DNA of 64,000 nt, taken from a virus. Below, one piece after another: positions 1 to 53,365 of the stretch. The position numbers and the translations under genes are program-made. Position 1 is the stretch's first letter. Each line of letters begins with the position of its first letter. The stretch lies in the IMG/VR virus record IMGVR_UViG_3300037149_000105, positions 83,411 to 147,410 of that record. One strand, 5' to 3'. The notes below the pieces were generated by a model that saw only the letters and a list, made by a program, of their open reading frames with translations, made no database searches and was not told the DNA's origin.

Positions 1-128
1 CTAAGGCAAGTCCTCGATCACAGTTGTCTGATACCTGTGCAGAGGTCACGAAGAAACAGACTAAGCGTGTGAATAAGGCACTTCAATAGATTTCTTGGAC
101 GGGGATTCGATTTCCCCCACCTCCTCCA
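1..128 (+). ncRNA. ssrA: tmRNA, 3' portion (5' part outside window)
   Basis: CTAAGCGTGTGAA segment followed by GGACGGGGATTCGATTTCCCCCACCTCC-TCCA, the T-arm/acceptor 3' end typical of tmRNA; no D or anticodon arm upstream. Confidence 0.75.
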
Positions 129-2081: not shown

Positions 2082-2166
2082 CCCCGAATGGCGGAAGTGG
2101 CGAGACGCGCGAGACTTAAAATCTCGCATCCGTAAGGGTATGAGGGTTCGAATCCCTCTTCGGGGA
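2082..2166 (+). tRNA. tRNA-Leu(TAA), no encoded CCA
   Basis: CCCCGAA/TTCGGGG-A acceptor; CGAGA-CTTAAAA-TCTCG anticodon arm; long variable arm; GGTTCGAATCC T arm. Confidence 0.92.
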
Positions 2167-2790
2167 CAGGTGATGCCTAATAGCATTATCAGACACTCCT
2201 AATTCTCTGGCTAACACAGAAAAGTTGGAAGTAGCAAGACGCGCAAGTAGTTCTTCATGCGAAGGCCACTCTATTTTTGTCGGTTGTGGTTTTATAGACT
2301 TCTTTTCTTTAGGAGGGGAGGGTGACTTTGAGATATTTTTACCTCGATAGGTATCAGTTTGTGCATGGCAATTAGGGCAAATTACTCTAAGATTACTTAG
2401 GGTATTATCCATATGATTACCATTGATATGGTCCAATTCTAGGGGGATCGAGAGCTTGTTCCATTTAACTAACCCACATATACCACATTGTTTTATGAAT
2501 ACCCCCTCTGAAAAGAGCTTTTGTTTCAGTTTTGCTGATTGAATAGGGAAGCGGTTGTTTAAATAATCATCCAGGTCTCGTCTTGGCGGGAGTTTCACCC
2601 CTTTGCTCCAGCTTTTCCCCACAAAGTGCTTAGTGCTAACTGGCCATTTTTTGAGCGTTTGATAAAATTGCCGGTAGTTTCCTCCCTCAGCAACAATGTT
2701 GAGTTTGGTTAACACCTCCCGCACACAAGTGGAGCCTAACACTGCTTCTTTGAAAATTTCCTCAGTATAAGTTCGTTCAATCCGTTTCAT
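2116..2790 (-). CDS. HNH homing endonuclease (paralog of 204..881)
   Basis: CGIC...LELDHINGNHMDNTLSNLRVICPNCHAQT; C-terminal KIEWPS.EEL..HTH. Confidence 0.9.
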   Translation of the reverse strand: MKRIERTYTEEIFKEAVLGSTCVREVLTKLNIVAEGGNYRQFYQTLKKWPVSTKHFVGKSWSKGVKLPPRRDLDDYLNNRFPIQSAKLKQKLFSEGVFIKQCGICGLVKWNKLSIPLELDHINGNHMDNTLSNLRVICPNCHAQTDTYRGKNISKSPSPPKEKKSIKPQPTKIEWPSHEELLARLATSNFSVLARELGVSDNAIRHHLSPKRDSNPHTLTDARF

Positions 2791-14399: not shown

Positions 14400-14555
14400 A
14401 TGGCTTTTCGAGTAGTTAGACTTGACTATTGGGATTACCACCACCCCACTGGGTTGGTTTTTGAAGATTCGGAGAAGGCTCAGGAAGAAGCTAACAATCT
14501 GAATCGGACTAATCCCGACCCCCTCAGTTGCTACATTATCATGCCGGAGCCTTAA
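14400..14555 (+). CDS. small hypothetical protein
   Basis: GGAG RBS before ATG 14400; TAATG coupling with next gene. Confidence 0.6.
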   Translation: MAFRVVRLDYWDYHHPTGLVFEDSEKAQEEANNLNRTNPDPLSCYIIMPEP

Positions 14556-14803
14556 TGTACCATGAACTAAAGACCCTCCCCCAATTCTATGATGAAATCA
14601 TCACTGAAATGAAGCGGTTTGAAATCCGCCAGAACGACCGTAACTTTCAGAAGGGGGATATGCTCCTGCTTCGTGAGTGGGATGGGGAGAACTACACCGG
14701 ACATGCCCAATATGCGCGTGTCACTTACATTACTGACTTTGAACAGAAGCCCGGTTTTGTGGTGATGAGCGTTGTTCTTTGGGACCCCGCTCCAAACTTT
14801 TAA
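14555..14803 (+). CDS. DUF3850 / ASCH-like (PUA-fold) protein
   Basis: HELKTLPQFY...KRFEIRQNDRNFQKGD.L.LREW. Confidence 0.85.
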   Translation: MYHELKTLPQFYDEIITEMKRFEIRQNDRNFQKGDMLLLREWDGENYTGHAQYARVTYITDFEQKPGFVVMSVVLWDPAPNF

Positions 14804-14809
14804 ATTTCT

Positions 14810-14840
14810 CTATACAAACTCCCCTATTGTGCGGTATACT
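14810..14840 (+). promoter_or_regulatory. early-type promoter
   Basis: CTATACAAA...GGTATACT. Confidence 0.7.
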
Positions 14841-14859
14841 AATTGTGGAGGAGTTACCC

Positions 14860-15756
14860 ATGAACGGTCTGTCCCCTGAACTGGTCGCCATCATCCGCAA
14901 CGAAAAAAAGGGTGCGTGGCTGAAGAAGTTCGATGAGTCCGTGGATATCATCAACGTCTCCGCCGCTCAGGACGCCTGGGTGCCTCGTGGCTCCATCAAA
15001 GCCAACGTTGGCTTCGGTCAAGGTGTCGGCATCCACACCCCTGAGACCAGCAGCTATACGAAGACCGGCAACATGGTCCTGGGCTACGGCGACCAGCTTT
15101 GGCCCGCAACGGTCGAGAACCCCGACCATGACGCCGAATTCGCCCTCCAGATGTGCCTCCGGTTCGGCTCCACCCCCCACTGTGGGGTTGACCACATCGC
15201 CAATCGGCTCGAAACCATGACCAACCAGGATGGCAAGCTCATCCGTGGCAAGCACTCCATGGCGTTCGTCAAGGCGTGGGTGGCGTTGTGCGAAGAGAAG
15301 GGCATCATCTGTGCGGCTCTGGACGAAGCCCGCCCCAAGCCCGTCATCACTGACATCGGTCTCTCCCCTCGTGTCACTACCACCCTGGAGGAGATGGATC
15401 TGCGGGTGGACCTCCCCTCCATTAAGATGGCGGAGATTAAATACAATCTGGTCCCTCGCCGTATCGCTGATCGCAAAAATCCCAATTTCGGCCAACTCAT
15501 GATGAGCCGGGATGGGAACGCTTCTCTGCTAGACAAGGCTTACTACGTAGCATGGACCCCTGGCACTCTGCATCGGGTTACCCGCTTCAGCGGCCTGAAC
15601 TGCAACTGTGAAGCCTGTGGCAAGCACATTCCCTCCGGTATGTTCGTGCCCATCGAAGCGGATGATCGCAAAATCGGGCACATCGGAATGTGGATCGGCT
15701 GTGACTGCGCCCGCAACATCTTCGGTGTCAAAGACATCGGTCTCGAAAGGAAGTAG
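14860..15756 (+). CDS. hypothetical protein with C-terminal Cys cluster
   Basis: GGAGGAG RBS; CEAC...GCDCA. Confidence 0.8.
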   Translation: MNGLSPELVAIIRNEKKGAWLKKFDESVDIINVSAAQDAWVPRGSIKANVGFGQGVGIHTPETSSYTKTGNMVLGYGDQLWPATVENPDHDAEFALQMCLRFGSTPHCGVDHIANRLETMTNQDGKLIRGKHSMAFVKAWVALCEEKGIICAALDEARPKPVITDIGLSPRVTTTLEEMDLRVDLPSIKMAEIKYNLVPRRIADRKNPNFGQLMMSRDGNASLLDKAYYVAWTPGTLHRVTRFSGLNCNCEACGKHIPSGMFVPIEADDRKIGHIGMWIGCDCARNIFGVKDIGLERK

Positions 15757-15757
15757 T

Positions 15758-15922
15758 ATGAACGACAGCAATCAACAAGCCATTTTTTGGGGTGGAGTCA
15801 TCATTAGCTTCGCCATCGGCCTCCTAACTCGTGCAGAGTTTGGATGGATCAGCTTTGGAGTGATGCTGGTGCTGAGTGGACTGATTAGCCACTTCTATGG
15901 GAACAAAGAGGAGGAGGAATAG
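15758..15922 (+). CDS. small two-TM membrane protein
   Basis: two hydrophobic segments after ATG 15758. Confidence 0.6.
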   Translation: MNDSNQQAIFWGGVIISFAIGLLTRAEFGWISFGVMLVLSGLISHFYGNKEEEE

Positions 15923-15923
15923 G

Positions 15924-16169
15924 ATGACAAGTGTTATCTCATGGGCCATTCTCACCTTTGCTGGAGTTCTGATTTGCTGGCTCTATTTCATGGCCATAGC
16001 GGATCGGATGAAGCAGCACAGACTCACTCGCTGTGGTCTCATGTCCTACACTCCAAAGGACCAACTCCAGACTGACGTTCAAGCTCGGGTGGATTATGAT
16101 CACTGCTGGCTGCGCTACAAAGCTCTCCTGAACACACAGTGGGCCAAAGCGCATCCACCAGAAAATTAA
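15924..16169 (+). CDS. small membrane protein
   Basis: GGAGG RBS; N-terminal TM. Confidence 0.6.
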   Translation: MTSVISWAILTFAGVLICWLYFMAIADRMKQHRLTRCGLMSYTPKDQLQTDVQARVDYDHCWLRYKALLNTQWAKAHPPEN

Positions 16170-16228
16170 TAAAATTTAATGCATACTTCCTCTACCCGTG
16201 GTATACTTAAGGTAGAGGAGATAACCCC

Positions 16229-17425
16229 ATGCCCTTCACCTTCCGCTCTGAATCCCGCATGAACGAACTGGTCGCCAAGGCCAACAAGCCCCTGGTGAAG
16301 ATGGGCTTGTCCACCCTGGTCGTCACCTCCGTCACCCCCCGCAAGGTCAACTGCACCACCGAGGGTGGCCAGAACATCACCTACGTGGTGTTCGATGCCG
16401 AGATCACCGTCCCCGAGGAACTGGTTCGCATCGCTGGCACCCAGGTCGTGGCTCGTATCGAAAACGTTGAAGGGCTCAACATGGTCACCCGCATCGGTGG
16501 CTACGAGGGCAACCTCGACGCCTACCGCACCGCTGCCATCGAATGCCAGCACTGCGGCTTCAGGCGCAACCGCAAGGGCTCCTGGATCGTCATCGACCCC
16601 ACTGGCACCCAGAAGCAGATTGGCGACACCTGCGTTGACCTCTACTTCGGCGTGGACGTTGCGAAGATCCTCAGCACCTCCTACCACGTTCACTCCATCC
16701 TGGACAGCGATGACTGGGGCATGGACGGTGGGAGCCGCAAGAGCTATGATGACACCGCTTCCTTCATCTCCACCATCGCTTGGATCGCCTCCACCAAGGG
16801 CTTCGTCACCAAGAAGCAGGCTGATGAGAACATGAGCCAGAGCAGTGCCGACTATGCGGATTACCTGACCAGCCCCCTCAGCAGCTTCGCTGATGCCAAG
16901 GAACGGGCCGCTTACTACGCTGCCAAGGAAGAGTGCTCCGTTTGGCTGAAGCATACCGGTATCGTGAGTGTTCAGGAGACGGTCGTGGACTTCTGGATGG
17001 AGAAGGACAACCTGTCCGAGTTCGAGCACAACTGCCGGGTTGCCATCCTCGCGCAGTCGCTCCGCTACAAAGGTTTGGTCGCTTATGCGACGAAGATGTG
17101 GGTCGATGCGGTCAAGAAGGCTCAGGCCGAACTGAAGGCTGCCCAGGCCCCCCAGGCTCGCACCGTCAGCAATTACGTGGCTGCCAAGGGTGAGCGGATT
17201 GTCCTGACCCTCACCGTCAAGAACATCTACTCCTACGACACGGCTTACGGCACCACGACCATGTTCATCTTCAACGACGAGCAGGGCAACTGCATCGTCT
17301 GGAAGGCCACCTCCAACCCCTCCATGGAGATCGGCCAGACCTACAGCGTCAAGGGCACCGTCAAAGACCACACCGACTACAAAGGCACCAAGCAGACCCT
17401 TCTGACTCGGTGCCAGATTGGGTAA
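16229..17425 (+). CDS. conserved phage protein with Zn-binding motifs and C-terminal OB-fold-like domain
   Basis: CQHC..RRNR...IGDTC; C-terminal YGTT..F.F.DEQGN..VWK...VKGTVKDH.DYKG.KQT.LTR; GGTATACT -10 upstream. Confidence 0.75.
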   Translation: MPFTFRSESRMNELVAKANKPLVKMGLSTLVVTSVTPRKVNCTTEGGQNITYVVFDAEITVPEELVRIAGTQVVARIENVEGLNMVTRIGGYEGNLDAYRTAAIECQHCGFRRNRKGSWIVIDPTGTQKQIGDTCVDLYFGVDVAKILSTSYHVHSILDSDDWGMDGGSRKSYDDTASFISTIAWIASTKGFVTKKQADENMSQSSADYADYLTSPLSSFADAKERAAYYAAKEECSVWLKHTGIVSVQETVVDFWMEKDNLSEFEHNCRVAILAQSLRYKGLVAYATKMWVDAVKKAQAELKAAQAPQARTVSNYVAAKGERIVLTLTVKNIYSYDTAYGTTTMFIFNDEQGNCIVWKATSNPSMEIGQTYSVKGTVKDHTDYKGTKQTLLTRCQIG

Positions 17426-17445
17426 TAAGTAGGGTAGGCAATATT

Positions 17446-17470
17446 GAAAGGGGCCTCATGGCCCCTTTTT
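17446..17470 (+). terminator. intrinsic terminator
   Basis: GAAAGGGGCC-TCAT-GGCCCCTTTTT. Confidence 0.75.
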
Positions 17471-17488
17471 CATTCCAACAGGAGCAGT

Positions 17489-17635
17489 ATGAGCATTTTC
17501 GAATGGATTTTTTGGCCCCTCTGGCTTGCCGCGATATGGTTCCTACGATATGGTCCTTCGATGCGATTTCAGGAGTGGTTCTGTGACTGGCAGGTTAGAG
17601 TCAATGAAAAAATGAGTATTAATAAGAAGGAGTAG
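17489..17635 (+). CDS. small membrane protein
   Basis: AGGAG RBS; Trp-rich TM. Confidence 0.55.
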   Translation: MSIFEWIFWPLWLAAIWFLRYGPSMRFQEWFCDWQVRVNEKMSINKKE

Positions 17636-17639
17636 ACAT

Positions 17640-17810
17640 ATGAAATTTCAAGACATTCCACTAAAAGGGTATTTCCGGCTCACTCCGGATGGTCGTAGTT
17701 TCCAGAAGACCAGTTACTTTGGATACTACGTTGACTCATGCATGGGAGAGATGCAGGTTCAGGGTGATCTGGAAGTCATTCCATTTGATACCCCGACTGA
17801 ACCTGAGTAA
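17640..17810 (+). CDS. 56-aa hypothetical protein (not in ORF track)
   Basis: AAGGAG RBS; MKFQDIPLKGYFRLTPDG...PTEPE. Confidence 0.65.
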   Translation: MKFQDIPLKGYFRLTPDGRSFQKTSYFGYYVDSCMGEMQVQGDLEVIPFDTPTEPE

Positions 17811-17812
17811 AA

Positions 17813-18397
17813 ATGGCTCGATTTCTTACCCCGGAACAAAAGGCTGAGTCTTACAAGAGGGCGAAAGAGGCTAAACTTTGTAGGTGGTGTGGGTTAGACG
17901 TTCACCGCTTGAGTGCAAAGCGGAGAACTTTTTGTTCGGATGAGTGTGTACACGAGTTCAACATTCGCTCTAGTGCTAGTTACATCCGAATCTATATTGC
18001 CAAACGTGATAAATACATCTGTCAGATTTGTGGATTGGACTGTAAGGGATTCGTAAGCAGACTTAGGCGGTATGTTCGAGAACACATTCAGGAACTTCAA
18101 CAGCAACCCATCTATGCAGGCTACCAGAATTACCGTCATGCTCAGAGGGCTCTGGAAATGGAGTTCTTCGACCTTCGCAATATGGAATGGGTGAATACCC
18201 ATGGGAGGTCCACCTTCTATGATATTGATCACATCATACCCGTTTCCGAGAACAAAAATCAATGTGGAGAAGAAAACCTCCGCACCCTCTGCCTGGGCTG
18301 CCATCGGAAAGAGACGGCGAAACTAAGGGCTCGATTGAAAAAGGCTAATCTTGCGGCTTCTGATTCCTCTCTTCAAGTTCCAGAATCACCATCTTAG
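17813..18397 (+). CDS. HNH endonuclease
   Basis: RDKYICQIC...DIDHIIP...NLRTLCLGCHRKET. Confidence 0.9.
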   Translation: MARFLTPEQKAESYKRAKEAKLCRWCGLDVHRLSAKRRTFCSDECVHEFNIRSSASYIRIYIAKRDKYICQICGLDCKGFVSRLRRYVREHIQELQQQPIYAGYQNYRHAQRALEMEFFDLRNMEWVNTHGRSTFYDIDHIIPVSENKNQCGEENLRTLCLGCHRKETAKLRARLKKANLAASDSSLQVPESPS

Positions 18398-18620
18398 GCT
18401 TTGGCTTTGGTGCTCGCTTCTTTCTGGCTGGTTTGGGGATCCCCACCATGCCATTGCGGAAGCTATCAACCCACTCCAGGGCTGAAATCAATTCAGCCGC
18501 ATCAAATTGAGACATCGCTATGTACTTAAGCTCCGCTTGCTTCTCTCCGACCAGCAGGATGCGGATCATGTCCTCATCGTCTTGAATCTCCATCACCCAT
18601 TTGCGAATTGTGTCTGACAT
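18345..18620 (-). CDS. hypothetical protein
   Basis: AGAGGA RBS; last gene of - strand block. Confidence 0.6.
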   Translation of the reverse strand: MSDTIRKWVMEIQDDEDMIRILLVGEKQAELKYIAMSQFDAAELISALEWVDSFRNGMVGIPKPARKKRAPKPKPKMVILELEERNQKPQD

Positions 18621-20304
18621 TGGCGTGTCCTCTTTGGATGTCCTCGCGGCTTAGTTCCTGTAAGACAAGTCGTCTGTTTTGAGAGTTAAGGTCGTTCGAT
18701 AACTTCTTCCAGACTTCAGACCCCTTCAAAAAAGAGTCAACAAGTCCGTTTTCCGATGGCCATTTTTGCCCTCGTTTGATATTTTCAAACTCCAATTTTA
18801 ACGCCATCGCGGCAGTCCGGATCTCCGGGGGGATTGGGTAATTAGAGGAAATGGTTGAGAGTTCGGGCTCCTCCGTTGGCTTAGCCAAAAATTTCATTCT
18901 AGCCCTTTTCTTGAGTAAGGAGCTAGCCTTTGGTTGTGAATCGAGATACCCACCCTCACGAAGAATTTTTTCTACATCCATATTGTCAGGATTTAGCATC
19001 CTCTCCACGTGATCAACCGCATCCGCTCTAAGTGCGTCCAAATCTTTCCGTTGTCCCATTAGTGCGTTTAAATAGGCGTAGACCCGCTCCGCATCCTCTT
19101 TTTTCAAGCCAGGAATGATTCTGTCAATATTGGCTTGAGTTGCGCGGGCTCCGCCTCGCGCGTTGTTTAACTGAGTATCAAATGTCCACTTCTCATCTGC
19201 TGTCTCTGGCTGTTTAATCTTTCTTGCTTTTTCTATAAGTTGGAAGTAATCACGCTCAGGAGATTCAGGGCTATTGATATAAAATTCTAGTTCCGCATCA
19301 ATTTTTTCATTTTGTGACATATCAGGATGATAGAGGCGTTCCACCTCTTGCCCTATTATATCTGAGTAGTTAGATACAAAGCAACTCCTGCTACAGAAGG
19401 GGCCGTCATCTGTGTAATATGCGTCAGGAGAATCCTCATCTATGTATTTTTCGCAATACGCACATTGGTCATACGGATGCGCGTCATCCCAATCGTTGAA
19501 TACAAAGCCCTCGTTTACCCAGTGAGCTAGGGTCTTGTCATAATTGACCAACACTTCTACGAGCCACCAGTAGTTACCATCGTTAAAATAGTAGAGATGC
19601 CCTTCCGCTTCTTTCTTTCCAAAGTCATTCCCATCTACATCCTGACATTCAAAGTGTTCAATGTCGTCCGCACTAGTTGGAATAGAAAATTGAGCGTAAC
19701 GATCTGAGCCGTAAGTCCCACCCACCTCTGCCTGCACGATTACATAAAGTGGGCCTCTAGCTAGGTAAGTTCTGGCGTAGTTCTCATTTTTTGTACACCA
19801 ATGGGAGCCTTTGCCCATTAGCATTGCAGCCTCTGGAGTAGTTACTTTAAAAAAAGCGTAGCCCCTCTGCTCTGTCAGAAGCTCACAGCCGTTATTCAGA
19901 TACTCTTGCCGTCTCCGCTCTACTTCCCTCTTTTGCTCTTTTTTAGATAGCTGTCCCCGGTCCATCTCAGCCATTTGGGCTGTAAATGTGTACCAATCAT
20001 ACGCCAAGATATCTGTGTGGGTGTCGGGCATAGCCTTGAACTTTTGGGAGTTCTTTAATCGGTTGAACTTGACCAGTGATTCATGCGCCTCTTCTAAAGC
20101 CATCTGATTAAGACCCAATCTACCCTTTGTAAACTCCCTAACCAGGAACTCTGTGTAGGTTCCATTGTTGGTGGGGTCAATATCTGCAAGCTGCTTAACA
20201 GCCTCTGGGGTAGCATGATACTTGCTCGCCAGTGCCTTTTGCCTAGCTTCCGAAGCGGCTGCGCTGAGGAGGAAAGCATGTTTGAAGAGTAGTTTGAATG
20301 GCAT
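18574..20304 (-). CDS. large hypothetical protein, probable internal virion protein
   Basis: DPT..YTEFL, HWCTK, GPLY domain shared with 22280..25027; CAYC/FCSRSC finger. Confidence 0.8.
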   Translation of the reverse strand: MPFKLLFKHAFLLSAAASEARQKALASKYHATPEAVKQLADIDPTNNGTYTEFLVREFTKGRLGLNQMALEEAHESLVKFNRLKNSQKFKAMPDTHTDILAYDWYTFTAQMAEMDRGQLSKKEQKREVERRRQEYLNNGCELLTEQRGYAFFKVTTPEAAMLMGKGSHWCTKNENYARTYLARGPLYVIVQAEVGGTYGSDRYAQFSIPTSADDIEHFECQDVDGNDFGKKEAEGHLYYFNDGNYWWLVEVLVNYDKTLAHWVNEGFVFNDWDDAHPYDQCAYCEKYIDEDSPDAYYTDDGPFCSRSCFVSNYSDIIGQEVERLYHPDMSQNEKIDAELEFYINSPESPERDYFQLIEKARKIKQPETADEKWTFDTQLNNARGGARATQANIDRIIPGLKKEDAERVYAYLNALMGQRKDLDALRADAVDHVERMLNPDNMDVEKILREGGYLDSQPKASSLLKKRARMKFLAKPTEEPELSTISSNYPIPPEIRTAAMALKLEFENIKRGQKWPSENGLVDSFLKGSEVWKKLSNDLNSQNRRLVLQELSREDIQRGHANVRHNSQMGDGDSRR

Positions 20305-20318
20305 CCCAGTTCCTTCAC

Positions 20319-21650
20319 TTAAGGCTTGAGTATTGCGGTTTCGCTCAGTTTTTGTGAATGCTTGATATGGAACTCAAAATTATAGCCAGCCTGTTTGACT
20401 GCTTGTGCTTTGGCGTGGTTCATAGCCAAAGTTTTTTGATAAGTGTACACTGATTTTACCTCAATGATTAGGTTCTTGGATTTAATAAAAATGTCAGGGT
20501 AATACCTACGTAATTTTCCTTTGAATTCATAGAAGAAACTAGGGCAGTCAATTCCGGTTAAAATATCAGCTTCTGAAGTGCCCGAATCTAACAACTCTTG
20601 AATAACTAAAGGCTCGTATCCTTGGACTTGGATAGTCTTTCCAGAAGGAAAAGTGAACGTCTTACGAGCATAACCTAACTTTAATCTGGAGTGAAAGAAT
20701 ATGGGAGACTGAAGCGGGTAAGGCACTCCATACTTGTTAATATTTGTTACCTCTCCTTTTGCACGAATCTCTGCCGATTGATAAGGGGCGGTAACTCCAT
20801 AACGAGCCACACAAGTCAAAGCTCGCTTAGCTTCGCATTCCGGATTTTGGCGGGGATGTTCATACCCCGTCTTTATTCTCTGACCTTCTTTCCATTTTTT
20901 ATTTTTTGCGTAGTGTCCCCCATAACGAGCATTTATTGTCTCCTGAATACGCCTACCCATCCCAGGAATTTGAAATACGTTGTCCACTCCAAACATTTTT
21001 TGGAGCACAGCTTTTCTTTTTTCATACCCAGATTTTAAGGATCCATGCCTGCTAATTTCAGTCTCCTGTTTTTTAGCTACAAACTCAGGAAGACTAATGG
21101 GATTAGCCACTCCATAGCGGTTAAGACAGGTTTGCTCTCTTTTCTCAATGAAAGAGTGATCCTGTGTATGGTGCTCCACGCCGTACCGTTCCAATGAAGT
21201 TTTTCTTCTCTCTTCTTCAGAATGAGCACACTTAGCCGGACACTTCTTGTAATGATCTGAACAACACCAATACCAATGAAGAACCTGCCCCGTATTTGTC
21301 TTGACCGATTTCATCAGATGAAACTTAGCCAGAGATCCACAGCCATTTTCGCATAGTTGGCCCTCAGAGGGCAACTCAGCACTCCTCCTTGCTTGCCGCT
21401 CCTTCTGCCCTTTGGCATGTCTTTCCTTTTGAATTTTCGCTCTGGTTTCCAAATCCATAATAGAGACTGCATGGGCTGTAGTATTTTTTGATTGCATAAG
21501 TCTGTAACCTAGACATTCCCTAGCCTTTTGATGACAACAGTACAACCTTTTAGCAGCATGGTAGTAATTTCCAGCACCGCCACACAGATAGCAGCTACCC
21601 ACTTGTTCAGCCGTGACCTCAACAAATTTAAAATAGTTTGAATTTGGTAT
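20319..21650 (-). CDS. homing-endonuclease-like protein (RYGV repeats plus PD-(D/E)xK domain)
   Basis: repeated T...RYGV; YYPDIFIKSKNLIIEVKS; frame open from ATA 21650 behind AAGGAG. Confidence 0.8.
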   Translation of the reverse strand: MPNSNYFKFVEVTAEQVGSCYLCGGAGNYYHAAKRLYCCHQKARECLGYRLMQSKNTTAHAVSIMDLETRAKIQKERHAKGQKERQARRSAELPSEGQLCENGCGSLAKFHLMKSVKTNTGQVLHWYWCCSDHYKKCPAKCAHSEEERRKTSLERYGVEHHTQDHSFIEKREQTCLNRYGVANPISLPEFVAKKQETEISRHGSLKSGYEKRKAVLQKMFGVDNVFQIPGMGRRIQETINARYGGHYAKNKKWKEGQRIKTGYEHPRQNPECEAKRALTCVARYGVTAPYQSAEIRAKGEVTNINKYGVPYPLQSPIFFHSRLKLGYARKTFTFPSGKTIQVQGYEPLVIQELLDSGTSEADILTGIDCPSFFYEFKGKLRRYYPDIFIKSKNLIIEVKSVYTYQKTLAMNHAKAQAVKQAGYNFEFHIKHSQKLSETAILKP

Positions 21651-25062: not shown

Positions 25063-28000
25063 TTACGTTGTTCTGATAAGACGTTTCTGCCTTACTGGAG
25101 TGGGATAGACGTTTAGCTCATCCTCTATTTCGTGAAGACGGTCGTCAATCTGGTTCCACCGTTCCACGAGTTTCTCGTACTCCTCTGACCATTTTATAGA
25201 GTCCCCCTCCTGAGCATTTTCTTCTAGGGCTTGGTCTACCACTTGCTGCTCTTTGGTTAGCTGTTCCTTTTCATCCATCAGAGGGGCAAACTCAGTCTCT
25301 TTTTCGTCAAACAACAGCCCCTGAGCCGCATCCATTTTCTCAACATGGAGGTCCATATCAGGATATAGCTTTTGGAGATACTTGAGCATCTCGTGACCCA
25401 CATACTCTCTTGGATCCACAGCTTTGCGTAACCGCTCGGACATCAGTTTCCTGGCCTCTAGAGTAGTCAGAGCTTGGTTTCCAATGTCGATGCTATCAAT
25501 CCACGGGTAGCCCTCATAGATGGAATAACGAATCTCTCCCACACAGAATCTTCCGTTGAGGGCGAACAGTGTGAAGTAATCCTGGGCAAACCGGCGGTGG
25601 TGGTGCTCATGTTTGAACGTCAACGCTCCAATCTTTATCAGCAAAGAGGAGTTTATTTTGCTCGCAGTTGTTCGGGAAGCTCCGCCTCCAATTCCGGTGG
25701 GAGTAATGCCCCCGGCTTGTGATCCGGGTATGCCATCCCCAGATACGCCTCTCTTGTAAGAGGAATCTTGTGAGTCTGCATGAAGCATAGGATCGGATCC
25801 GACCCAGCTTGGGGTTTCGAAGACGTTTTTTCCGCCCCTTCGTTCTTTGATAACAGCGGTGATTTTTTCCCTAGCTTGTTCGGCATTGAGCCCTCCATCT
25901 TCTGGATCGTGTGAGGCCCAGATCTCATTTGCAATACGGATGAACTTCTTGTCTCGCTTGTCCGCAGGGCTGAAAAGTGCCCTCACGGCCTCCCAGGTGA
26001 TTGACTGGAGTTCGCGGGGTAGGATGCCCACCGCAGGGTCTTTCGCGGCTCTACGGTATGCCTCAGCGTAAAGAGCATAGAGTCCGTTCAGACCTGTGAT
26101 TGAACTATTACTCGGACCTGGAATCTTCTCCATATCGGGGTCACCCTCGACATATTCGCCCTCATCATCATCCCATACCCACACCTTGCCATTTTTGTCT
26201 TTCTTAGGGTTGAAACCGGTGCCAAAGTTATGAGCGACTTCTACCGCCGCACCACTCAGCGGGCGAATCAGTGCCGCCGCAACCGCATGGGTATCAATCG
26301 TTACATCACCCTCATCAGCCATTGGGGCGATAAGATTGTTGTAGAATGACCGCACCTTATGATTCGTTCCAACCAATTTAGATACATCACTGACCGATTC
26401 TGATTCAAGGATTCGGACAGCCTTGGAGATGGCGGCGAAGCTGTTCCAGCGAACCTTAGCATTCTGTTTCCCAGTTTTGAACCAATCTCCAAAATTCCCT
26501 TCCGGAGTGACTTCACGAAGCTTGTTATCCGTATGTCCTTCGGCCCAAGCCCTGATCCATACGGAAGCCAAATACTCTCGACCTGATTCAGGGGTATTTT
26601 CTGTTAGCACTTCGTTGAGAGTTTTACCACGAAGCAGAGGAATGGCCAACGCTGTAGACCACTTCAGCTTGGGCTCCTTGGTTTTCTTGGGTTTCCTGGC
26701 ACTTTCCTTTTTCTTCTTGCCACCCTCCTCTGACTCTCCGGCCCTAACCGCTTCCTTCATGTCATCTTCCAGGTCATCCGGGGTCCAGTTGCGATGCAGG
26801 GCCACCCGATCCATCTTCCAATCCCAGCGGAAGTCTTTCAACTCTACCAACGCTTCAATGATACGTTCTGCGGTGGTGACGTTCTGGAACCAGTGAGCCT
26901 GGGGGGACATCGCCGCCACCACAGCCGCCACCTTGTGTGGCTCCAGATGGAACTTCTCCGCCCACCTGTGAATGATGCGATTGCCTCCCACGTACCATAA
27001 TTTAGCCCTATCCGCTAGGGATTTATCCCAAGTCTTATACAGCCAGATGAGGTTTGCAGCCATGTGGTTGATGATCTCTTCAGCCTTTTCATGAGCATCA
27101 AACTTCTGGAAACGGCCCTCTCGCATATATTTAAAGTTGGGGTAGTTATCTACCGCTAGGTTGACATTATACTCAAACTTCTCATTCTCCATCATCTTCT
27201 GAAGGTCCGGTTGGCTAGTAGCGTGACTGTGGGGGTCAACCTCACCGGGCTTCAGCACACTGCTTTGGGCGGCTGGACTGATGCGCCTATCCGCCAGTGA
27301 CTTGGCTAAGTCCTCTTCCTCTTGAGTCGGAGGAGTAACCTTTTCAGCGTTTGGTGTCTCCTCATTCACCATCCCCTCCACGGGGTCTACGTTTAACCCA
27401 CCACCTTCGGTTCGGGGCTTCACTGAAGCGGTAAGCAAAGGGCTGGAGGGGTTGAATGTCCCCTTGTTTCCTATGGCTGATTTTACTTGACGGGGATTCC
27501 ATACGATGTAATGGCGAGTGCCAGGGGCCATTCTCATGTTTAGAAATTGAGCACTCGCATCCATGATAATCCCATCGAACCCCATGTAGCGGTAGATAGC
27601 AGAGATAAGAGCGCCTGCACCTCCTTGAGCACCCGCACTTTCATCATTTCCTCTTACAGCTTTTTCAAATTCATAAGCAGAGCAGCCCTCTAACAACTTC
27701 TCCACCAATTCTTCCCATATGCGGTCTGCTCGTATGTCTGACTCTGAGCAAGCAGCCTGTACCGCCTCATAGAGTTTGGTAACTTCAGGGCCATCTACCC
27801 ACTCATCTTCATTCTCCGGGTCAGGGCCACCATCCCCACCCAAGTAGGTTCCGCCTTTTGGTGTTACGATGACTGGGTTTTCCATTTTCAAGTAAGTGAG
27901 GTAGACGGCCCCCTGATGAGTCCCACCTAACATTTCCCATGCTTTTTTCTTGGCAAGCTCTCGGATAGCTTTGGGGTTGTCTTCGTGCTCTTCCCCCATC

Positions 28001-31000
28001 TCTTCTTCCCAATCTCCCCCATCACTCATCAAGTCTTCTGCAACCTCATCAATTTTTCCAGCCAAATCTCGGCAATTGATATCTGCATACTGACTCGCAT
28101 CCACTTCACAATCGGTAAAATATATCCCCTTGCTATACCAGCCATCCGTGTATGCGTTACTCATAGAGAATTGGTCAAATTCATTGGTGGTTCCGTGCAT
28201 GACTCGTTTTGGGGTTCCGTCCTTATTGACAACTTTGGAATCACCGAACCACGCCTTAAATTGCGGAGTCTCATGCGGCTTGGGTCTTTTTGCAAGTTCT
28301 CTTCCAATTTGTTGAGCGGCTTCATTTACAGCCTGCTGGGCCGACATCGCTTTCTTGACCCTTCCGATTTTTGAGATAGCCCCAACCAGCCGCTCTGTAG
28401 CTTCATTGCGGCTCGTCACACCGGTCATATCGGTGTTCTTGATTGCCGCCGCACAACTCAGCAGGTAGGATTTGGACTCCTGGTTAGCCCCATAGAGCGC
28501 ACAGTCCAACAACTGGGAGAAGTCAAACGCCCCCCTGGACCCAGACTGAATGATGTTTACTACCGCATCTTTTGGCAAAGACTTGGCTTGCCGGATATTT
28601 TCCCGGTTCTTTTTAACAAACTGAGCCGCTTGTTTGATTTGGTTGGACAGGCCCAGCCGGTTGTTCAGACTATCCGGAACGGGAAGCAGAGACTCAATCC
28701 CCACCATCTGCATATCAAAATCCCAACCATTCTGATGACCATAATTGACTGATTTAGCTATACTGTCCCAATTCTGCTCGAATTCACTAAACCAGGGTTC
28801 TAGGCACCCACCCTCACGTAGCACTTCAAAGAACCGCATCGGAACCTTGCCGACAAGCGCACGTTTGGTCTCTTCTCGGATACGATCAGCCGGGAGGTAT
28901 TGTAGTTCTGGCTGCATCCGCCGCATCATTTCTACCAGTTGGGGGCTCACCTTCCACTCAGACCCAAATTGGGCACTGAAACGAGCCGCCCTATATACCC
29001 TTAATGCATCCTCAGCAAACTTCTCACTGACGTTCTGGAGGGTCTTATCCTTGATATTTTGCAGTGCTTCAGGAGGTCCGAACAGCTTGCCGTCCGCATC
29101 CACCGACATGGCGTTCACGTTTAGGTCCCGGCGAACCATGTCGTCTTCGAAGTTGCCGGTTGGAGTAACATCAAAATCTTTGTGACCCACCCCATTTTTT
29201 TCTTCGGAACGGGCCACCGCGATTTCAATTTGGCCATAGGTTGGATCTTGGTAAAGGTAGACAGGGAAAGCCTTCCCCACATTCTCCAGACCCATTTGCT
29301 GCAACGTTTCTGCCGTTGTGTTGGTAACCACATCAAAGTCCTTTGGCTTACGGTCAAGTAGCATGTCTCTGACGCAACCACCAACAAAACGGAAGTCAGC
29401 CCTGGGGTCAAACATGTAAGCCATCTGCTTGAGCTTCTTCAGCATATATAGGGGTAGCTTGACCTCCTGGTCATGAGGAAGCTGAACCATCGCAGCCTGC
29501 TTGGAGGCAACTGTCATCCCCTGGTACCGCCAGACTTCACCTGGGTTCTTCATGTTTAGAAGCTCCCCAATTGGAATCCCTGCGTATTTTCTGCCACCTT
29601 CGTATTGCTCAATGTAAACCTCATCCTTCATTTGGGTCAAGTCAGACTCCTCCAGTCCACTCTCATTAAATACCCAATCGATGATGGTGTCAAGATTTCT
29701 TGGAGTGAGTCGCCACACTTCAAAGTTTTTGTCTACAACCCGGATTTGGTTGTAAAATCGCATGAAGAACTCTCGGACTTCGTTCTTGAACATGTCATAC
29801 TCGCCATTAAAAATGGCATCACACTCTTCCAGAGACACATAACCCCAGATGAGGGTAAAGAACACATCTTCCACTGGAAAGTCAGGCTCCCCATACTTCA
29901 TCGCATGGAGCTTTCGCCACTCTTCCTCCACCTCTCCTGGGTTGTTGTCATCTTCTTCTTCGTGGGCCTCATGAAGATGACGCTGACAAGCACTAAGAAT
30001 TTGGTCCCACTTGTCATTGAGAATCTGTTCTCTGGCATAGGTTTCGTGGGTATAGTCCCCGTCTCCACTGCATTCTGCATAGTTGTTCGCTGAGTCGCCA
30101 TCTACCCAGTATTCACCATTGATGAAACTACCCCACCCTGCGGCAAGTTTGCTGCTGTAGTGTTGTCGGGCCACCTCTTCATCAAGTCCGTAGTCTACCA
30201 AGACCGGATACCGCTCACCCCTACGTTCGACCAGCCCCCACTGGCTCTCTCGATCAATGTCCCACCATTTAACACCAAGTGTCTGGCATAAGAACTGAAG
30301 AGATTTCACTGCCTGCCTATCTGTAAGAAATTCTGTTCCCCCACGCTCTACTTTTTTACAAAAGTTGTAGGCGTTGGTTGCTCCATATCGTTCGAAATCT
30401 GAATAGGTGGCCCCTCTTAGGACTCGCTCAACTACGAGCCAGTGAAACTCAGTATCATAGTAAAAAATGCGAGTGATAATAGTGCAATCCTCAACCTTCT
30501 CATACATTCTGAGTTCGGCTTTGTTCTGAGCCACACCGGGCTGATTGATCGCTAGCTTGATTGCAACATGTTCATTTACCCCGACGACCATACGGGAAGA
30601 CCCTTCCCCTAAAACTGGAAGCTCCATTCCGGTTCGCTCTCTCAGGAGCTTTAAGCGATCCCTGACGGTCTGAGAGTAGCCATTAGGCTCCTCCCAATTG
30701 TTATCCCCCTCCCCTTCATCCTGACCTTCTGGTGATATTTCGTGAATGCCGGGAAGTTTTTTGAGCAGATCCTTTGGGATATTTTTAGGCTTCTCTTCAG
30801 CCACTTTGACTTGATCGGCGTCCTGTTCCCCAAAGATGTCAATCAATGCAGTTAAAAGTTCCCTAGGTACTTCAGAGCCATCGGCCCATTTGGTCAGTCC
30901 CTTATTGGTTACACGACTAACGCCTCGTGGAAGCCCATTGCGGTCGTATAGGATGACGAACAAAGGGCCTGGGGTGCTCTTGTAGATGGTCTGCTTGTAG

Positions 31001-31629
31001 CGGTCGATTATCTTACGAGCGTCATTTAATTCCTGTTTATCTCGTTTCTGCACTGGTTTGCCCAGGTCCACCATCATACGCTTATTTGTGTCCGGTGCTC
31101 TCCAAACAGATTTGGAGATGCCCTCTTCCCGTCCTGCATGACGTTCTAAGAACTCTTCATCACTGACGTTATCATCATAAAGCCTGCTCCATGCACCAGA
31201 GTCTTCACTGGCCGTCTTCTGATTGACAATTCGCTCATGAACTATATCGTAGAATTGCTGGCTCAAAGGGAACAGGATTTCATAACCGTACATCAATTCA
31301 GTTCCGTAGAAGTCGATCTCGGTCTGCTTGATAGCCTGCATCATCGCCTTGATGACCCCCGCATCCTCTCCGAACTCAGTCTCGGATAAGAAAGCCTTGA
31401 TTTGTTCTAGGATAAGTGCAGTCCCTTCATGAAATACAATCTGGGTGTGTCCTGGGTTGTCCAAAGGGATAGGGAGTTCTAGCATGAATACTGAAAATCG
31501 AGGAATACCCAAGTCAATCAGCCACTGGATTCGGGGCCGCTCATCTCGGATGAAATAGATATTAATGACACCCTGCTCAGGTAGGACAAATGCTCTCTTC
31601 ATGCTCACACTCTCAATATTGATACCCAT
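25063..31629 (-). CDS. polyvalent protein: kinase-like + CCA-adding tRNA nucleotidyltransferase + ART-like + HhH-like + GNAT-like modules
   Basis: GEGSSR/VAIK/LVDYG; VGGCVRD..KDFD, RRDLNVNAM, EDALRVYRAARF; FKAWFGDSK..MHGT..GIYFT..GFDGII..QVKSA; WY..SPQ..KVRSFY..VTIDTH..LQSITW. Confidence 0.88.
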   Translation of the reverse strand: MGINIESVSMKRAFVLPEQGVINIYFIRDERPRIQWLIDLGIPRFSVFMLELPIPLDNPGHTQIVFHEGTALILEQIKAFLSETEFGEDAGVIKAMMQAIKQTEIDFYGTELMYGYEILFPLSQQFYDIVHERIVNQKTASEDSGAWSRLYDDNVSDEEFLERHAGREEGISKSVWRAPDTNKRMMVDLGKPVQKRDKQELNDARKIIDRYKQTIYKSTPGPLFVILYDRNGLPRGVSRVTNKGLTKWADGSEVPRELLTALIDIFGEQDADQVKVAEEKPKNIPKDLLKKLPGIHEISPEGQDEGEGDNNWEEPNGYSQTVRDRLKLLRERTGMELPVLGEGSSRMVVGVNEHVAIKLAINQPGVAQNKAELRMYEKVEDCTIITRIFYYDTEFHWLVVERVLRGATYSDFERYGATNAYNFCKKVERGGTEFLTDRQAVKSLQFLCQTLGVKWWDIDRESQWGLVERRGERYPVLVDYGLDEEVARQHYSSKLAAGWGSFINGEYWVDGDSANNYAECSGDGDYTHETYAREQILNDKWDQILSACQRHLHEAHEEEDDNNPGEVEEEWRKLHAMKYGEPDFPVEDVFFTLIWGYVSLEECDAIFNGEYDMFKNEVREFFMRFYNQIRVVDKNFEVWRLTPRNLDTIIDWVFNESGLEESDLTQMKDEVYIEQYEGGRKYAGIPIGELLNMKNPGEVWRYQGMTVASKQAAMVQLPHDQEVKLPLYMLKKLKQMAYMFDPRADFRFVGGCVRDMLLDRKPKDFDVVTNTTAETLQQMGLENVGKAFPVYLYQDPTYGQIEIAVARSEEKNGVGHKDFDVTPTGNFEDDMVRRDLNVNAMSVDADGKLFGPPEALQNIKDKTLQNVSEKFAEDALRVYRAARFSAQFGSEWKVSPQLVEMMRRMQPELQYLPADRIREETKRALVGKVPMRFFEVLREGGCLEPWFSEFEQNWDSIAKSVNYGHQNGWDFDMQMVGIESLLPVPDSLNNRLGLSNQIKQAAQFVKKNRENIRQAKSLPKDAVVNIIQSGSRGAFDFSQLLDCALYGANQESKSYLLSCAAAIKNTDMTGVTSRNEATERLVGAISKIGRVKKAMSAQQAVNEAAQQIGRELAKRPKPHETPQFKAWFGDSKVVNKDGTPKRVMHGTTNEFDQFSMSNAYTDGWYSKGIYFTDCEVDASQYADINCRDLAGKIDEVAEDLMSDGGDWEEEMGEEHEDNPKAIRELAKKKAWEMLGGTHQGAVYLTYLKMENPVIVTPKGGTYLGGDGGPDPENEDEWVDGPEVTKLYEAVQAACSESDIRADRIWEELVEKLLEGCSAYEFEKAVRGNDESAGAQGGAGALISAIYRYMGFDGIIMDASAQFLNMRMAPGTRHYIVWNPRQVKSAIGNKGTFNPSSPLLTASVKPRTEGGGLNVDPVEGMVNEETPNAEKVTPPTQEEEDLAKSLADRRISPAAQSSVLKPGEVDPHSHATSQPDLQKMMENEKFEYNVNLAVDNYPNFKYMREGRFQKFDAHEKAEEIINHMAANLIWLYKTWDKSLADRAKLWYVGGNRIIHRWAEKFHLEPHKVAAVVAAMSPQAHWFQNVTTAERIIEALVELKDFRWDWKMDRVALHRNWTPDDLEDDMKEAVRAGESEEGGKKKKESARKPKKTKEPKLKWSTALAIPLLRGKTLNEVLTENTPESGREYLASVWIRAWAEGHTDNKLREVTPEGNFGDWFKTGKQNAKVRWNSFAAISKAVRILESESVSDVSKLVGTNHKVRSFYNNLIAPMADEGDVTIDTHAVAAALIRPLSGAAVEVAHNFGTGFNPKKDKNGKVWVWDDDEGEYVEGDPDMEKIPGPSNSSITGLNGLYALYAEAYRRAAKDPAVGILPRELQSITWEAVRALFSPADKRDKKFIRIANEIWASHDPEDGGLNAEQAREKITAVIKERRGGKNVFETPSWVGSDPMLHADSQDSSYKRGVSGDGIPGSQAGGITPTGIGGGASRTTASKINSSLLIKIGALTFKHEHHHRRFAQDYFTLFALNGRFCVGEIRYSIYEGYPWIDSIDIGNQALTTLEARKLMSERLRKAVDPREYVGHEMLKYLQKLYPDMDLHVEKMDAAQGLLFDEKETEFAPLMDEKEQLTKEQQVVDQALEENAQEGDSIKWSEEYEKLVERWNQIDDRLHEIEDELNVYPTPVRQKRLIRTT

Positions 31630-52500: not shown

Positions 52501-53334
52501 CCCCCCCTCAGTAATCACACCCGTAGCGGTACCGGAAACGTTCCAGATGAAGGCAAGCCCCCCACCCAGTCCATCCAGATAATCAGATTGAATATTAAGC
52601 ACCATGTAATCTTGGGTATTGTCGAAATAGCAAGACATTGCGGCATCTAGCATCCCCACCTTGGTTGCTAGAGTCCCTATCACAAGGCTCAGATCATACG
52701 GATAGGTCAGGGAGTCATACATGGTTCCAGGGCAGAAAGCCAAGAAATCATAGGTTGCGGGGGAAGAGGCTGCCATTCCTCCGGAGATTGAATTGATGTT
52801 TGGCTGTGCGACTTGAAGGGACGCAGAGTTTCCATCAGCCGTGATAAGCGAAAGACCGCCAGGAAGACCGACCGGGGTGATGTAGCTTACCTGTCCGTTG
52901 GAGATGGGGGTTCCGTTCAACCCCAGTGCCTGTAGGGTTACGGGAACTGCGGTGGAATCGTATGCTAGATAATTATTTGTCCTACCTGAAACTGAAATAG
53001 AAAGAGGTTCAAGAACCTCTATGGCCAACGGGTAGTAAACTTGTGTCACTCCATCATCAGCTTTAACATAACACTGGAAGAGTCGAGTATCTGCACTAGG
53101 GCTGATGAACTTCACCTGAGCCGTGTTGGTTGCAGAATTAGTCTCTAAGGTGAGCCAAGAGGGGTTTAGAAACAAGCCCCAGCTAACGGTACTGGCAGGA
53201 TTCACAGCCGTCAGGGTCACCAAATTAGCCGTTTGAAGGGCTGCGATACGTACGATTGCCCCCTCATCATCAGCGTTCAGAGTAAGAAGCACGTTTTGTT
53301 GGTCAATCGTTGCGGCAGAGAGTGTTAAGGCCAT
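46531..53334 (-). CDS. giant Ig-like repeat fibre protein
   Basis: 2267 aa; ATGG..PY.W...LP.GL.L..G.LSG.P repeats. Confidence 0.8.
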   Translation of the reverse strand: MALTLSAATIDQQNVLLTLNADDEGAIVRIAALQTANLVTLTAVNPASTVSWGLFLNPSWLTLETNSATNTAQVKFISPSADTRLFQCYVKADDGVTQVYYPLAIEVLEPLSISVSGRTNNYLAYDSTAVPVTLQALGLNGTPISNGQVSYITPVGLPGGLSLITADGNSASLQVAQPNINSISGGMAASSPATYDFLAFCPGTMYDSLTYPYDLSLVIGTLATKVGMLDAAMSCYFDNTQDYMVLNIQSDYLDGLGGGLAFIWNVSGTATGVITEGGTTTSSSMNWTPETAGTVQFQVAIQDSGNTISNLNFGPFQVGQATGTWTSTSAIKLQIDAPFKTGPAGSSVPFTVSVPATPTTEFQAGETINVTVALVSANGEPSITPPTTFSLTSVAPSNTFDLVIPTTAQFKGKWTVVVTANNSLTSPTRTGQLSAVLLSTGLPTFSINNNAIITLSQVTGSSITPVSLVATNSGTLQPITDVKFSLVNAPPGLSIVNNQIVGAVPQVGSFNFQVLGTEPNYSNSFTNVSLVVTGSASPLTITSFGPAVTQTPDNIQFNVNWGVTGSPVTLMLQRNADVPLSVLNSVQSTQTIVGTSVYTLIGTDYRTSVYSIPSVVVSNSSVNATQLSGAPTIAEIDDSDLLTVIWNPLPVNNTYSLYSGWNIQLSDNGATPVQLFNLAGLPPTGLEVSNTSNDSRLFTYQLANNDSYTMNMTALSSNRGAILDSNPWSNFLAFPGPIDNSLVGVSQSTLSIGQSLTITLSQSYAAADYWRITYSNGTNTGWLPISQKTQATTFSTPGSQAILVELEYDYSTLTPPVYLRRSLTFSVFVQNQVYNSTTAGVIGTGNVGLGGEAGFEIASSSSSTYQPQPYMVIVKALVQDNMTQELKILVATSRTNNASSLLNTMSADVFPLVYRPNLKDLVIPALNFTSNLALVTPVLISTTALPTAIVGQPMQETQLSATGGTTPYDWYSDSLPFGLNLSLDGTLSGTPLAVGVYNINFSVQDATSPAFIAEATVMLTIESDIAVQTVTPPAATVGAYYQSQLTATGGLPPYSWSVVDGALPLGLSLDAGSGLISGYPVTYNSDSDFVNQFVFVTEVVDSIGSYSSVSFQMWLLPMNLTLGNMDQTIISEGMDFKMAIPVFGGRSPYTISSFTSDSSIGNALSIISPEAVDVVSGLGTPPLTIMTGDQVFSPTAYPYVVSFPLSATGGVAPYVWSLDISVPALNTILSPIVSASLAGGTFLADGAYSIVAHVVDQTGASVSKVINLTSTLKGGSGGTGPSALEYVIINKNSSSYTTDWTFTPLNNLPDAQQGSPYLPPSLPGSFFGIAVWNPTSNQIYDLRTEATQIQFTNLYSTVGGAGQSNNSKFIVDATTAGLGSGLSGILQSLFSTSNSNLVDPTTGKPYPAQWQDIYDPIITVHQPNLPADQQVYTWSIGGATTIPYPTFTGINSAGETVVGPVVTTSTGTVTLVPTTLLTSKFTTPALAASNPYVLEIIATDTNSNTYSTNFAFYSVAGGTITSTQASGTTVVNEVFPGISLLTPSEAGAISSGAVAQSVTSQQSGITTPYFPMGVAYYQGDYSNLAHTQMRAADTAAVTPTQGVTTTALGSNPYTFIILDDTGTSPSNSAISSLGNYTLGTVVTNNNLSKEMSVHCSVAGGGSGGTSTPVVTVTTVQGDTLNAAALGYQANTTYVNWFYILNATGGTAPYTFSLVNGTTFPGVTVHNNQTTTTFLSPTGTSAQTPYTGCFLLVNSLPTVSANSLNSTLNYMVQVQATDANGNQSTVATVPFTVIPMTTSSSGLAPALQALTNTLTGGPLWTGVSVTPLAQSITLSTNATWTLDSQLPAGLLLADPSGTVLMHGTSISGGGNATAIYNQTIQLIGTPINTANVTVNLTATAPGYSAFAVAIPLTINPQTATINLTSGGQVQPNTTYSLAQGSPFVSLHVEGFLSAASPAPGLITNLGTLSNPVVVNVTNHYNSSYAQTYDLYYTFTTASVGGTGTFSIQNAGSLTGSASFVVSPPALAAQGNTVSFTVSEYTSANFIISTPPLSISGGTAPYGAVCTVVSNPTYFGINSNGQPFFNVAMGLPGNTYTTNITYQVADSSGTPLVTSVVATISVYVQAETMNTVQFVSTAHAFTAGQSVSYSTAECIHVQLGHPPFTWNVTSVSMSSGASAFIKSSPSNELLVVNNSAYPVTYQDYAPTDNITGLWNGGLQLSGQTGQSFTIPAYAGAPTAGVYTVTLGITVTDSTGVSTSGTSIITLIVA

Positions 53335-53365
53335 TGTTTCAAGTCCTCATAAGAGCGGTCGGTAT

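Follow-up and report, generated by a model that had tools for sequence, protein, structure and literature searches.

A giant open reading frame (ORF) in an uncultured virus, the domains that it strings together and a small gene nested within it are the subject of this analysis. The DNA analysed, here called the window, is the last 64 kb (64,000 nucleotides) of the IMG/VR virus contig IMGVR_UViG_3300037149_000105, which is 147,410 bp long, has an estimated completeness of 51% and is referred to as G000 where whole-contig positions are given. The ORF occupies window positions 25063-31629 on the minus strand and comprises 2188 codons without internal stops; its product, P0001, contains a tRNA nucleotidyltransferase module of CCA-adding type, embedded among a truncated kinase-like module, an ADP-ribosyltransferase (ART) of the ART-PolyVal clade and a DUF7178 domain. 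Relatives of this protein are labelled P0002 to P0008 and their loci L0xx, L017 being the contig that carries P0003. The features of the locus, all on the minus strand, are as follows.

25063..31629, minus: polyvalent protein ORF (P0001), 2188 amino acids, open frame; architecture common to P0003, P0004, L018 and L019
30664..31629, minus: N-terminal region, residues 1-322, fold unassigned; related to the beginning of genes that stand separately upstream in relatives
30148..30624, minus: truncated protein-kinase-like module, residues 336-494; GEGSSR 341-346, K358, E372, D457, DYG 479-481
29515..30147, minus: acidic middle region, residues 495-705, fold unassigned; conserved along with the upstream-gene homologue in L008
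28354..29493, minus: class II CCA-type tRNA nucleotidyltransferase module, residues 713-1092; D764/D766, loop 806-813, RRD 833-835, EDALR 873-877; HD core absent
27430..28272, minus: ART-PolyVal ADP-ribosyltransferase module, residues ~1120-1400; H1145, Y1170, D1352; acidic insert
25795..27162, minus: DUF7178 module, probable HhH-GPD glycosylase-like fold, residues 1490-1945; invariant K1758 and D1779-T-H
25653..25886, minus: nested gene in the +1 frame, 77 codons; GGAGG 5 nucleotides before its ATG; overlaps the Gly-rich filler behind DUF7178
25066..25647, minus: C-terminal domain and coiled coil, residues 1995-2188

The giant ORF and its relatives

A length-restricted search with the nucleotidyltransferase region returned seven other long proteins with a PF01743 domain (P0002-P0008), all from other metagenomes, which are 48-88% identical to P0001 in that region and all of which, except P0007, also carry ART-PolyVal. 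No near-identical or similar DNA was found among cultured phages. The fused ORF, at ~2182-2209 codons, recurs in no fewer than four further assemblies, made from different samples (P0003/L017, P0004, L018 and L019) with its junction in frame and conserved, and on L017 the gene order around it is fully kept. The peptide-pattern search for related loci used narrow patterns and returned four loci, and is not a census of such fusions. An origin of the long ORF as an artefact, whether a chimeric assembly or two genes read through as one, would fit the fact that its first ~710 residues form a gene of their own in L008 and L009, but it is made very improbable by the recurrence of the fused frame with the same conserved in-frame junction. 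The 2188-residue ORF is real and is no assembly chimera: the single ORF announced in the preliminary description of this DNA is present, and the chimera that might have undone that description is refuted by the same ~2190-residue architecture in at least four independent assemblies. There are two candidate start codons, the ATG at 31629 and the ATG of codon 10 (31602), from which P0003 is called; no strong Shine-Dalgarno sequence was found before either. The gene is separated from its upstream neighbour by 23 nucleotides and from its downstream neighbour by 14.

The separate state of the N-terminal part in relatives is informative about how the protein came about. Residues 10-710 (window 29500-31602) are 50% identical to a separate 766-residue gene product encoded directly upstream of P0006 (L008:7666-9966), and 44% identical to a 627-residue one encoded upstream of P0008 (L009:8108-9991), which has two kinase-like modules. 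Since the two parts are separate and adjacent in these relatives, the ORF appears to be a fusion of two genes, a feature which the preliminary description overlooked, and the comparison of loci points to gene fusion or fission at a module border. The modules themselves also move, as the CCA module is the very start of P0005, P0006, P0007 and P0008, a further module follows it as an insertion in P0005, and P0008 carries its kinase-like module at the C-terminus, with two further ART-PolyVal giants encoded behind it. In L009 (10001-24185) three consecutive giants of 1394, 1628 and >1847 residues, each with ART-PolyVal, form a tandem polyvalent array. The contig also holds a second ORF of exactly 2188 codons (G000 14486-21052, minus strand), encoding a collagen-like protein with Gly-X-Y repeats; it was rejected as a relative of the polyvalent ORF, being unrelated, and the equal length is a coincidence.

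The nucleotidyltransferase module

The class II nucleotidyltransferase read from the letters alone in the preliminary description is confirmed by profile searches, and all the motifs that it named are present. Pfam places the head domain (PolyA_pol) at residues 747-864 (2.4e-17) and the neck (PolyA_pol_RNAbd) at 893-951, while PHROG 2244, 'tRNA nucleotidyltransferase', matches residues 746-1069 over profile positions 5-358 of 392 (2e-67). Motif A (GGCVRD 750-755 and DFD 764-766), motif B (RRD 833-835) and the nucleotide-template motif D (EDALR 873-877) are invariant among relatives down to 46% identity (range 46-87%), and both RRD and EDALR align with E. coli Cca motifs. The flexible loop between motifs A and B is needed for addition of A76 and is shorter in CC-adding enzymes; in P0001 it reads ARSEEKNGVGHKDF, with ARSEEKNG at 806-813, and has the length of the E. 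coli Cca loop, whereas PcnB, the E. coli poly(A) polymerase, carries an 8-residue insertion there.

Alignment with the E. coli K-12 record of Cca gives 38% identity over 210 residues (E 2e-40) with 9 gaps, none of them in the flexible loop, against 29% identity and 25 gaps for the K-12 record of PcnB, and among the NCBIfam profiles Cca ranks first with 173 bits compared to 75 bits for PcnB. It is this closer similarity to Cca, together with the loop of Cca length, that underlies the assignment as CCA-type, from which we infer a CCA-adding activity. Homology to human TRNT1 spans module residues 20-303, well past the head domain, and the module is the sole PF01743 match in the 147-kb contig.

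The segment that holds the HD motif of Cca is a gap in all six phage modules that were aligned, with weak collinearity resuming on either side of it. The module is therefore best described as an enzyme of the Cca lineage whose catalytic site looks intact and whose phosphohydrolase half has been lost, and with the HD core gone it could rebuild only those ends that carry a 3'-OH. The 'repair' reading of the preliminary description has to be qualified in this respect, as the catalytic motifs are there and the HD phosphohydrolase core is not. In comparison with E. coli Cca (NCBIfam NF008137), head and neck, motifs A, B and D and the loop length agree and there is weak C-terminal collinearity; unlike Cca, the phage module is expected to have no phosphatase or cyclic phosphodiesterase activity, and it is embedded in a protein of 2188 residues. 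Large phages commonly encode CCA enzymes as stand-alone proteins. The tRNA nucleotidyltransferases of jumbo phages (Iyer et al. 2021, PMC7824862) belong to the same family, PHROG 2244, which the module covers at near full length, and have likewise been proposed to restore tRNA 3' ends, but they are encoded by separate genes for ~300-420 residues, whereas in P0001 the enzyme is built into the interior of a polyvalent protein whose gene stands in a putative block of tail genes.

Accompanying modules and the nested gene

The kinase-like module has no Pfam match, yet the assignment made from its motifs in the preliminary description is upheld at the level of the fold. It has 975 relatives, many of them stand-alone proteins of ~180-230 residues which end right after the DYG motif, and in their alignment G343, R346, K358 (the VLK-type lysine), E372 (within AQNxxE) and D479-Y-G are invariant. 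The AlphaFold model (predicted local distance difference test score, pLDDT, 91.6) gave 86 Foldseek matches in the PDB at E<=1e-3, and all 50 of those listed are protein-kinase-like folds, for example TBK1, MK2, APH(2'') and PRPK. As modelled, the module is a kinase N-lobe with the G-loop, the beta-3 lysine, the helix-C glutamate and the DFG-type aspartate, and with the C-lobe missing. The ADP-ribosyltransferase is likewise confirmed, ART-PolyVal scoring 61.6 bits against a Pfam cut-off of 31.2, and its H1145, Y1170 and D1352 correspond to the H-Y-D triad reported for the clade.

Pfam labels residues 1490-1945 only as DUF7178, a domain with at least 945 shorter homologues that are either stand-alone or fused to ART-PolyVal or NUDIX, and no mention of it was found in the literature searched. 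The model of the domain (pLDDT 85.5) had no significant Foldseek match (E=0.49); compared with 48,161 representative PDB chains, its top 20 matches are all HhH-GPD glycosylases or QNG1, with Z from 8.7 to 5.5, values that are middling for a helical protein, so that a HhH-GPD glycosylase-like fold is probable and not certain. The structures concerned include the glycosylases T. maritima Ogg (3N0U) and E. coli Nth (2ABK) and the queuine-salvage protein QNG1/DUF2419 (7U07). The only hhalign alignment with Nth is a local one, of low probability (0.15) and not significant alone, which places the invariant K1758 on K120 and D1779 of the IDTH motif on D138 of VDTH. Set against the likeness, no significant sequence match to these glycosylases or QNG1 was seen and DUF7178 is about twice the size of Nth. 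The HhH/glycosylase-like module of the preliminary description is thus supported at the level of the fold, and while its module coordinates in general fall within ~40 bases, those for this module (25950-27060) took in only the inner ~1100 bases of DUF7178.

Behind DUF7178, in the +1 frame, lies the 77-codon nested ORF that was missed in the preliminary description. It is kept in eight loci; P0003, P0006, L018 and L019 have it, and so do three stand-alone DUF7178 genes, which contain it at their 3' end although the main frame is only 35-37% identical. In Roseobacter phage CRP-738 a search did not find it, and in phage LS06-2018-MD07 it was picked up only weakly. Over the overlap, BLOSUM conservation scores are 55-137 for the nested frame versus 13-36 for the Gly-rich main frame. 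Between the window and L017, the nested region diverges by 7.8%, compared to 18.8% upstream and 30% downstream; in the core of the overlap there are 12 changes, of which none is synonymous in the main frame and 5 are in the nested frame, while upstream of the overlap 88 of 113 changes are synonymous in the main frame. This pattern of substitution indicates that the nested frame is under purifying selection of its own.

Neither Pfam nor PHROGs has a family that the nested protein matches. Modelled as a complex with DUF7178, it scored 0.84 versus 0.00 for the best of three controls, a mark that was attained for 58 of 80 solved complexes and for 2 of 110 mismatched pairs, counts which are approximate because alignments made for this analysis were used. 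At least 69% of the contacts are common to the runs, the partner has a pLDDT of at least 65, and the contacts include K269 and D290 of the module, the putative catalytic lysine and aspartate. On the strength of these models the nested product is probably a partner or inhibitor of the glycosylase-like domain. Small +1-frame genes lying wholly within another gene are known from phages in the Rz/Rz1-type embedded genes; unlike these, the nested gene has nothing to do with lysis, and the predicted binding partner of its product is a domain that is encoded just upstream in its host gene.

For residues 1-322 there is no match in Pfam, PHROGs or the PDB and no usable Atlas match, and residues 495-705 match no Pfam or PHROG family. 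For the C-terminal ~190 residues the search turned up neither shorter homologues nor any from outside this protein family. A GNAT-like module, to which the preliminary description had assigned this end of the protein, was considered and rejected: Pfam gives no match at E<=1, the acetyl-CoA-binding motif Q/RxxGxG/A is not visible in the C-terminal alignment of seven relatives, and an Atlas score of 0.84 amounts to a lead. The module borders in P0001-P0008 often show a [KLMR]-T-[AV]-[SAK] motif (in P0001 at 139, 706, 1400 and 1988, with KAMSA at 1093). Its frequency in the phage proteome is not raised (17 seen, 20.8 expected) and the 'LTAS' behind the ART belongs to SAIGNxGxF, the conserved tail of ART-PolyVal; as a lead from sequence, the border motif may be a protease site.

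Comparison, setting and proposed role

Polyvalent proteins were described by Iyer, Burroughs, Anand, de Souza and Aravind (2017, PMC5512222) as giant phage polypeptides that join unrelated enzymatic domains, and the ORF is such a protein, combining the hallmark ART-PolyVal with kinase-like, nucleotidyltransferase and DUF7178 domains. It shares with them the H-Y-D ART-PolyVal, a protein kinase without the C-terminal subdomain and the shuffling of modules between relatives, and its place may likewise be among late genes, to judge from neighbouring giants with He_PIG domains and a Baseplate_J match below its cut-off; unlike them, it has no zincin peptidase, MuF domain or portal fusion. No CCA-adding or class II nucleotidyltransferase domain is mentioned in that study (PMC5512222), whose list of Pol-beta nucleotidyltransferases is limited to minimal enzymes of conjugative elements along with RelA/SpoT and GGDEF. 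The jumbo-phage survey and the NAD/ADP-ribose survey likewise report no polyvalent protein that contains a CCA enzyme, and the preliminary description's remark that this fusion was not known from a characterised phage agrees with the polyvalent-protein and jumbo-phage papers searched, in which no description was found. The CCA module with the kinase-like module, ART-PolyVal and DUF7178 is a new domain combination within a known class.

Upstream of the gene runs a co-directional block encoding proteins of 1277, 2267, 1717, 692 and 1286 residues, two of which have He_PIG immunoglobulin (Ig) domains, and the 1286-residue protein matches Baseplate_J at 20.5 bits, just under the Pfam cut-off of 21.1. 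The two downstream genes, for proteins of 922 and 195 residues, and the upstream gene for one of 345 residues are syntenic in relatives, and a scan for promoters and terminators gave counts not above those of shuffled controls. A gene for a 427-residue HNH homing-endonuclease-like protein (20319-21602, minus strand) is inserted between the genes for the 195- and 576-residue proteins and is absent from the otherwise syntenic L017; in L008 a GIY-YIG gene lies near, but not at, this site. In the cultured Roseobacter phage CRP-738 (L022:2744-5251) an 835-residue DUF7178 protein, gp40, annotated as 'hypothetical', is encoded between the portal and coat genes. The alt-type ARTs of phage T4 adjoin baseplate genes although they are packed in the head. 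Along with the co-directional block itself, a DUF7178 gene beside portal and coat genes and alt-type ARTs beside baseplate genes make virion carriage of the window protein plausible.

The contig encodes 16-17 tRNAs and a transfer-messenger RNA (tmRNA). The tmRNA gene (window 1-128, G000 83135-83538; tag ATINVVDFDRSFVPSFAEVA) is cut by the start of the window and stands beside the tRNA island, while an 89-nucleotide tRNA-Pro(tgg) called by ARAGORN at window 63224-63312 on the minus strand is doubtful, lying far from the island and without an encoded CCA. Further RNA-repair equipment is present as a stand-alone RNA ligase (G000 53294-54517, plus strand; PF09414 with a PHA02142 OB domain), followed by an HNH gene.

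The interpretation that we favour, and to which we attach an evenly balanced degree of belief, is that the ORF encodes a late-expressed polyvalent effector of a large uncultured tailed phage, carried in the virion, injected, able to rebuild tRNA ends and provided with a nested inhibitor or chaperone. Such a protein would have arisen by fusion of two neighbouring genes and by the stringing together of independently shuffling enzyme modules, one of which would be a member of the E. coli-type Cca lineage that has shed the HD phosphohydrolase core. The protein would be co-expressed with the tail and baseplate genes and travel in the virion, as has been proposed for polyvalent proteins and is known for T4 Alt, and would enter the next cell together with the DNA. 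There the nucleotidyltransferase would restore a missing C, C or A on tRNA 3'-OH ends, so that the tRNA pool, including the 16-17 tRNAs of the phage itself, could stay chargeable when host nucleases or defences trim the CCA, and the remaining modules would modify host proteins and nucleic acids. In the producing cell the 77-residue nested product would cover the glycosylase-like active site and so probably act as its inhibitor or chaperone. Packaging and injection, the targets of the modules and the inhibitor role are parts of this scheme that we infer.

A stronger form of this proposal, which we regard as rather doubtful, has the injected tRNA 3'-end rebuilder act before phage gene expression and so beat CCA-cutting defences, for example those of Cas12a3 type or CCA-trimming toxins, while the glycosylase-like weapon of the cargo is silenced in the producer by the inhibitor encoded in its second frame. 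RuvC-type cuts such as those made by Cas12a3 should leave 3'-OH ends, which is the type of end that a CCA enzyme without an HD domain could rebuild. Cas12a3 immunity has been found to cut the 3' CCA tails of tRNA (PMC13594972).

Several observations weigh against the favoured interpretation. CCA is already encoded in 15 of the 17 phage tRNA genes and in the tmRNA gene, and the 2',3'-cyclic-phosphate ends left by many tRNA toxins would be beyond healing by a module that, to judge from its sequence, is HD-less. Pfam finds no MuF, portal fusion or peptidase domain in the ORF. Apart from the proteins noted above, its neighbours are nearly all orphans in PHROGs, Pfam and PDB sequence searches, so that a 'structural operon' label rests on the Ig domains and the sub-cut-off Baseplate_J match. 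Class II motifs alone do not tell CCA-adding enzymes from poly(A) polymerases, and the module falls under every NCBIfam equivalog cut-off, the best score being 173 bits against 451, a threshold which belongs to a Cca profile that takes in the HD half absent from the module.

These last points would also suit a module that is not CCA-adding, i.e. a poly(A)- or poly(C)-type enzyme, a re-targeted nucleotidyltransferase that tags host RNAs for decay or has some other substrate, or an inactive scaffold. E. coli poly(A) polymerase is in fact among the best PDB sequence matches, with E-values like those of CCA enzymes, and the C-terminal third of the module is divergent in addition to the loss of the HD core. 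On the other hand, Cca outscores PcnB, the loop aligns without gaps with that of Cca and lacks the PcnB insertion, and PHROG 2244 is covered nearly end to end; the invariance of the catalytic and template motifs down to 46% identity argues against an inactive scaffold in particular, and we consider this group of explanations quite unlikely. A somewhat unlikely alternative accepts the enzyme and disputes its delivery, in that an unpackaged multi-enzyme of the late cytoplasm would use its CCA module to mature and maintain the tRNAs of the producing cell during bulk synthesis of structural proteins. The two phage tRNA genes without an encoded CCA, tRNA-Leu(taa) (window 2082-2167) and tRNA-Cys (G000 78951-79036), would be natural clients, the heavy outlay of the phage on translation and RNA repair (the tRNAs, the tmRNA and the RNA ligase) is in keeping with such a role, and stand-alone CCA enzymes are, as noted, common in large phages. 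However, ART-PolyVal and DUF7178 are hallmarks of proteins thought to be delivered with DNA and elsewhere lie beside portal and coat genes, a housekeeping enzyme needs no fusion into a giant shuffling polypeptide in a block of tail genes, and hosts possess a CCA enzyme of their own. The preliminary description as a whole is largely right in its observations: its reading of a polyvalent-type phage protein with a complete-looking CCA-type nucleotidyltransferase agrees with the sequence comparisons, one of its five modules (GNAT) finds no support, and the injection that it proposed is plausible.

How neighbouring genes are put together into giant proteins of this kind can be seen from the first 710 residues, which are separate in some relatives and fused in others. 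For DUF7178, with its roughly one thousand homologues, and for an unannotated overprinted gene that gene callers have missed, the locus also suggests functions that can be tested, and gp40 of CRP-738 offers an experimental handle on DUF7178 in the virions of a cultured phage. Should the nucleotidyltransferase module prove active and enter along with the DNA, this would be the first case in which a virion brings a translation-repair enzyme into the cell, and the enzyme would be a natural answer to defences, discovered recently, that cleave the CCA ends of tRNA.

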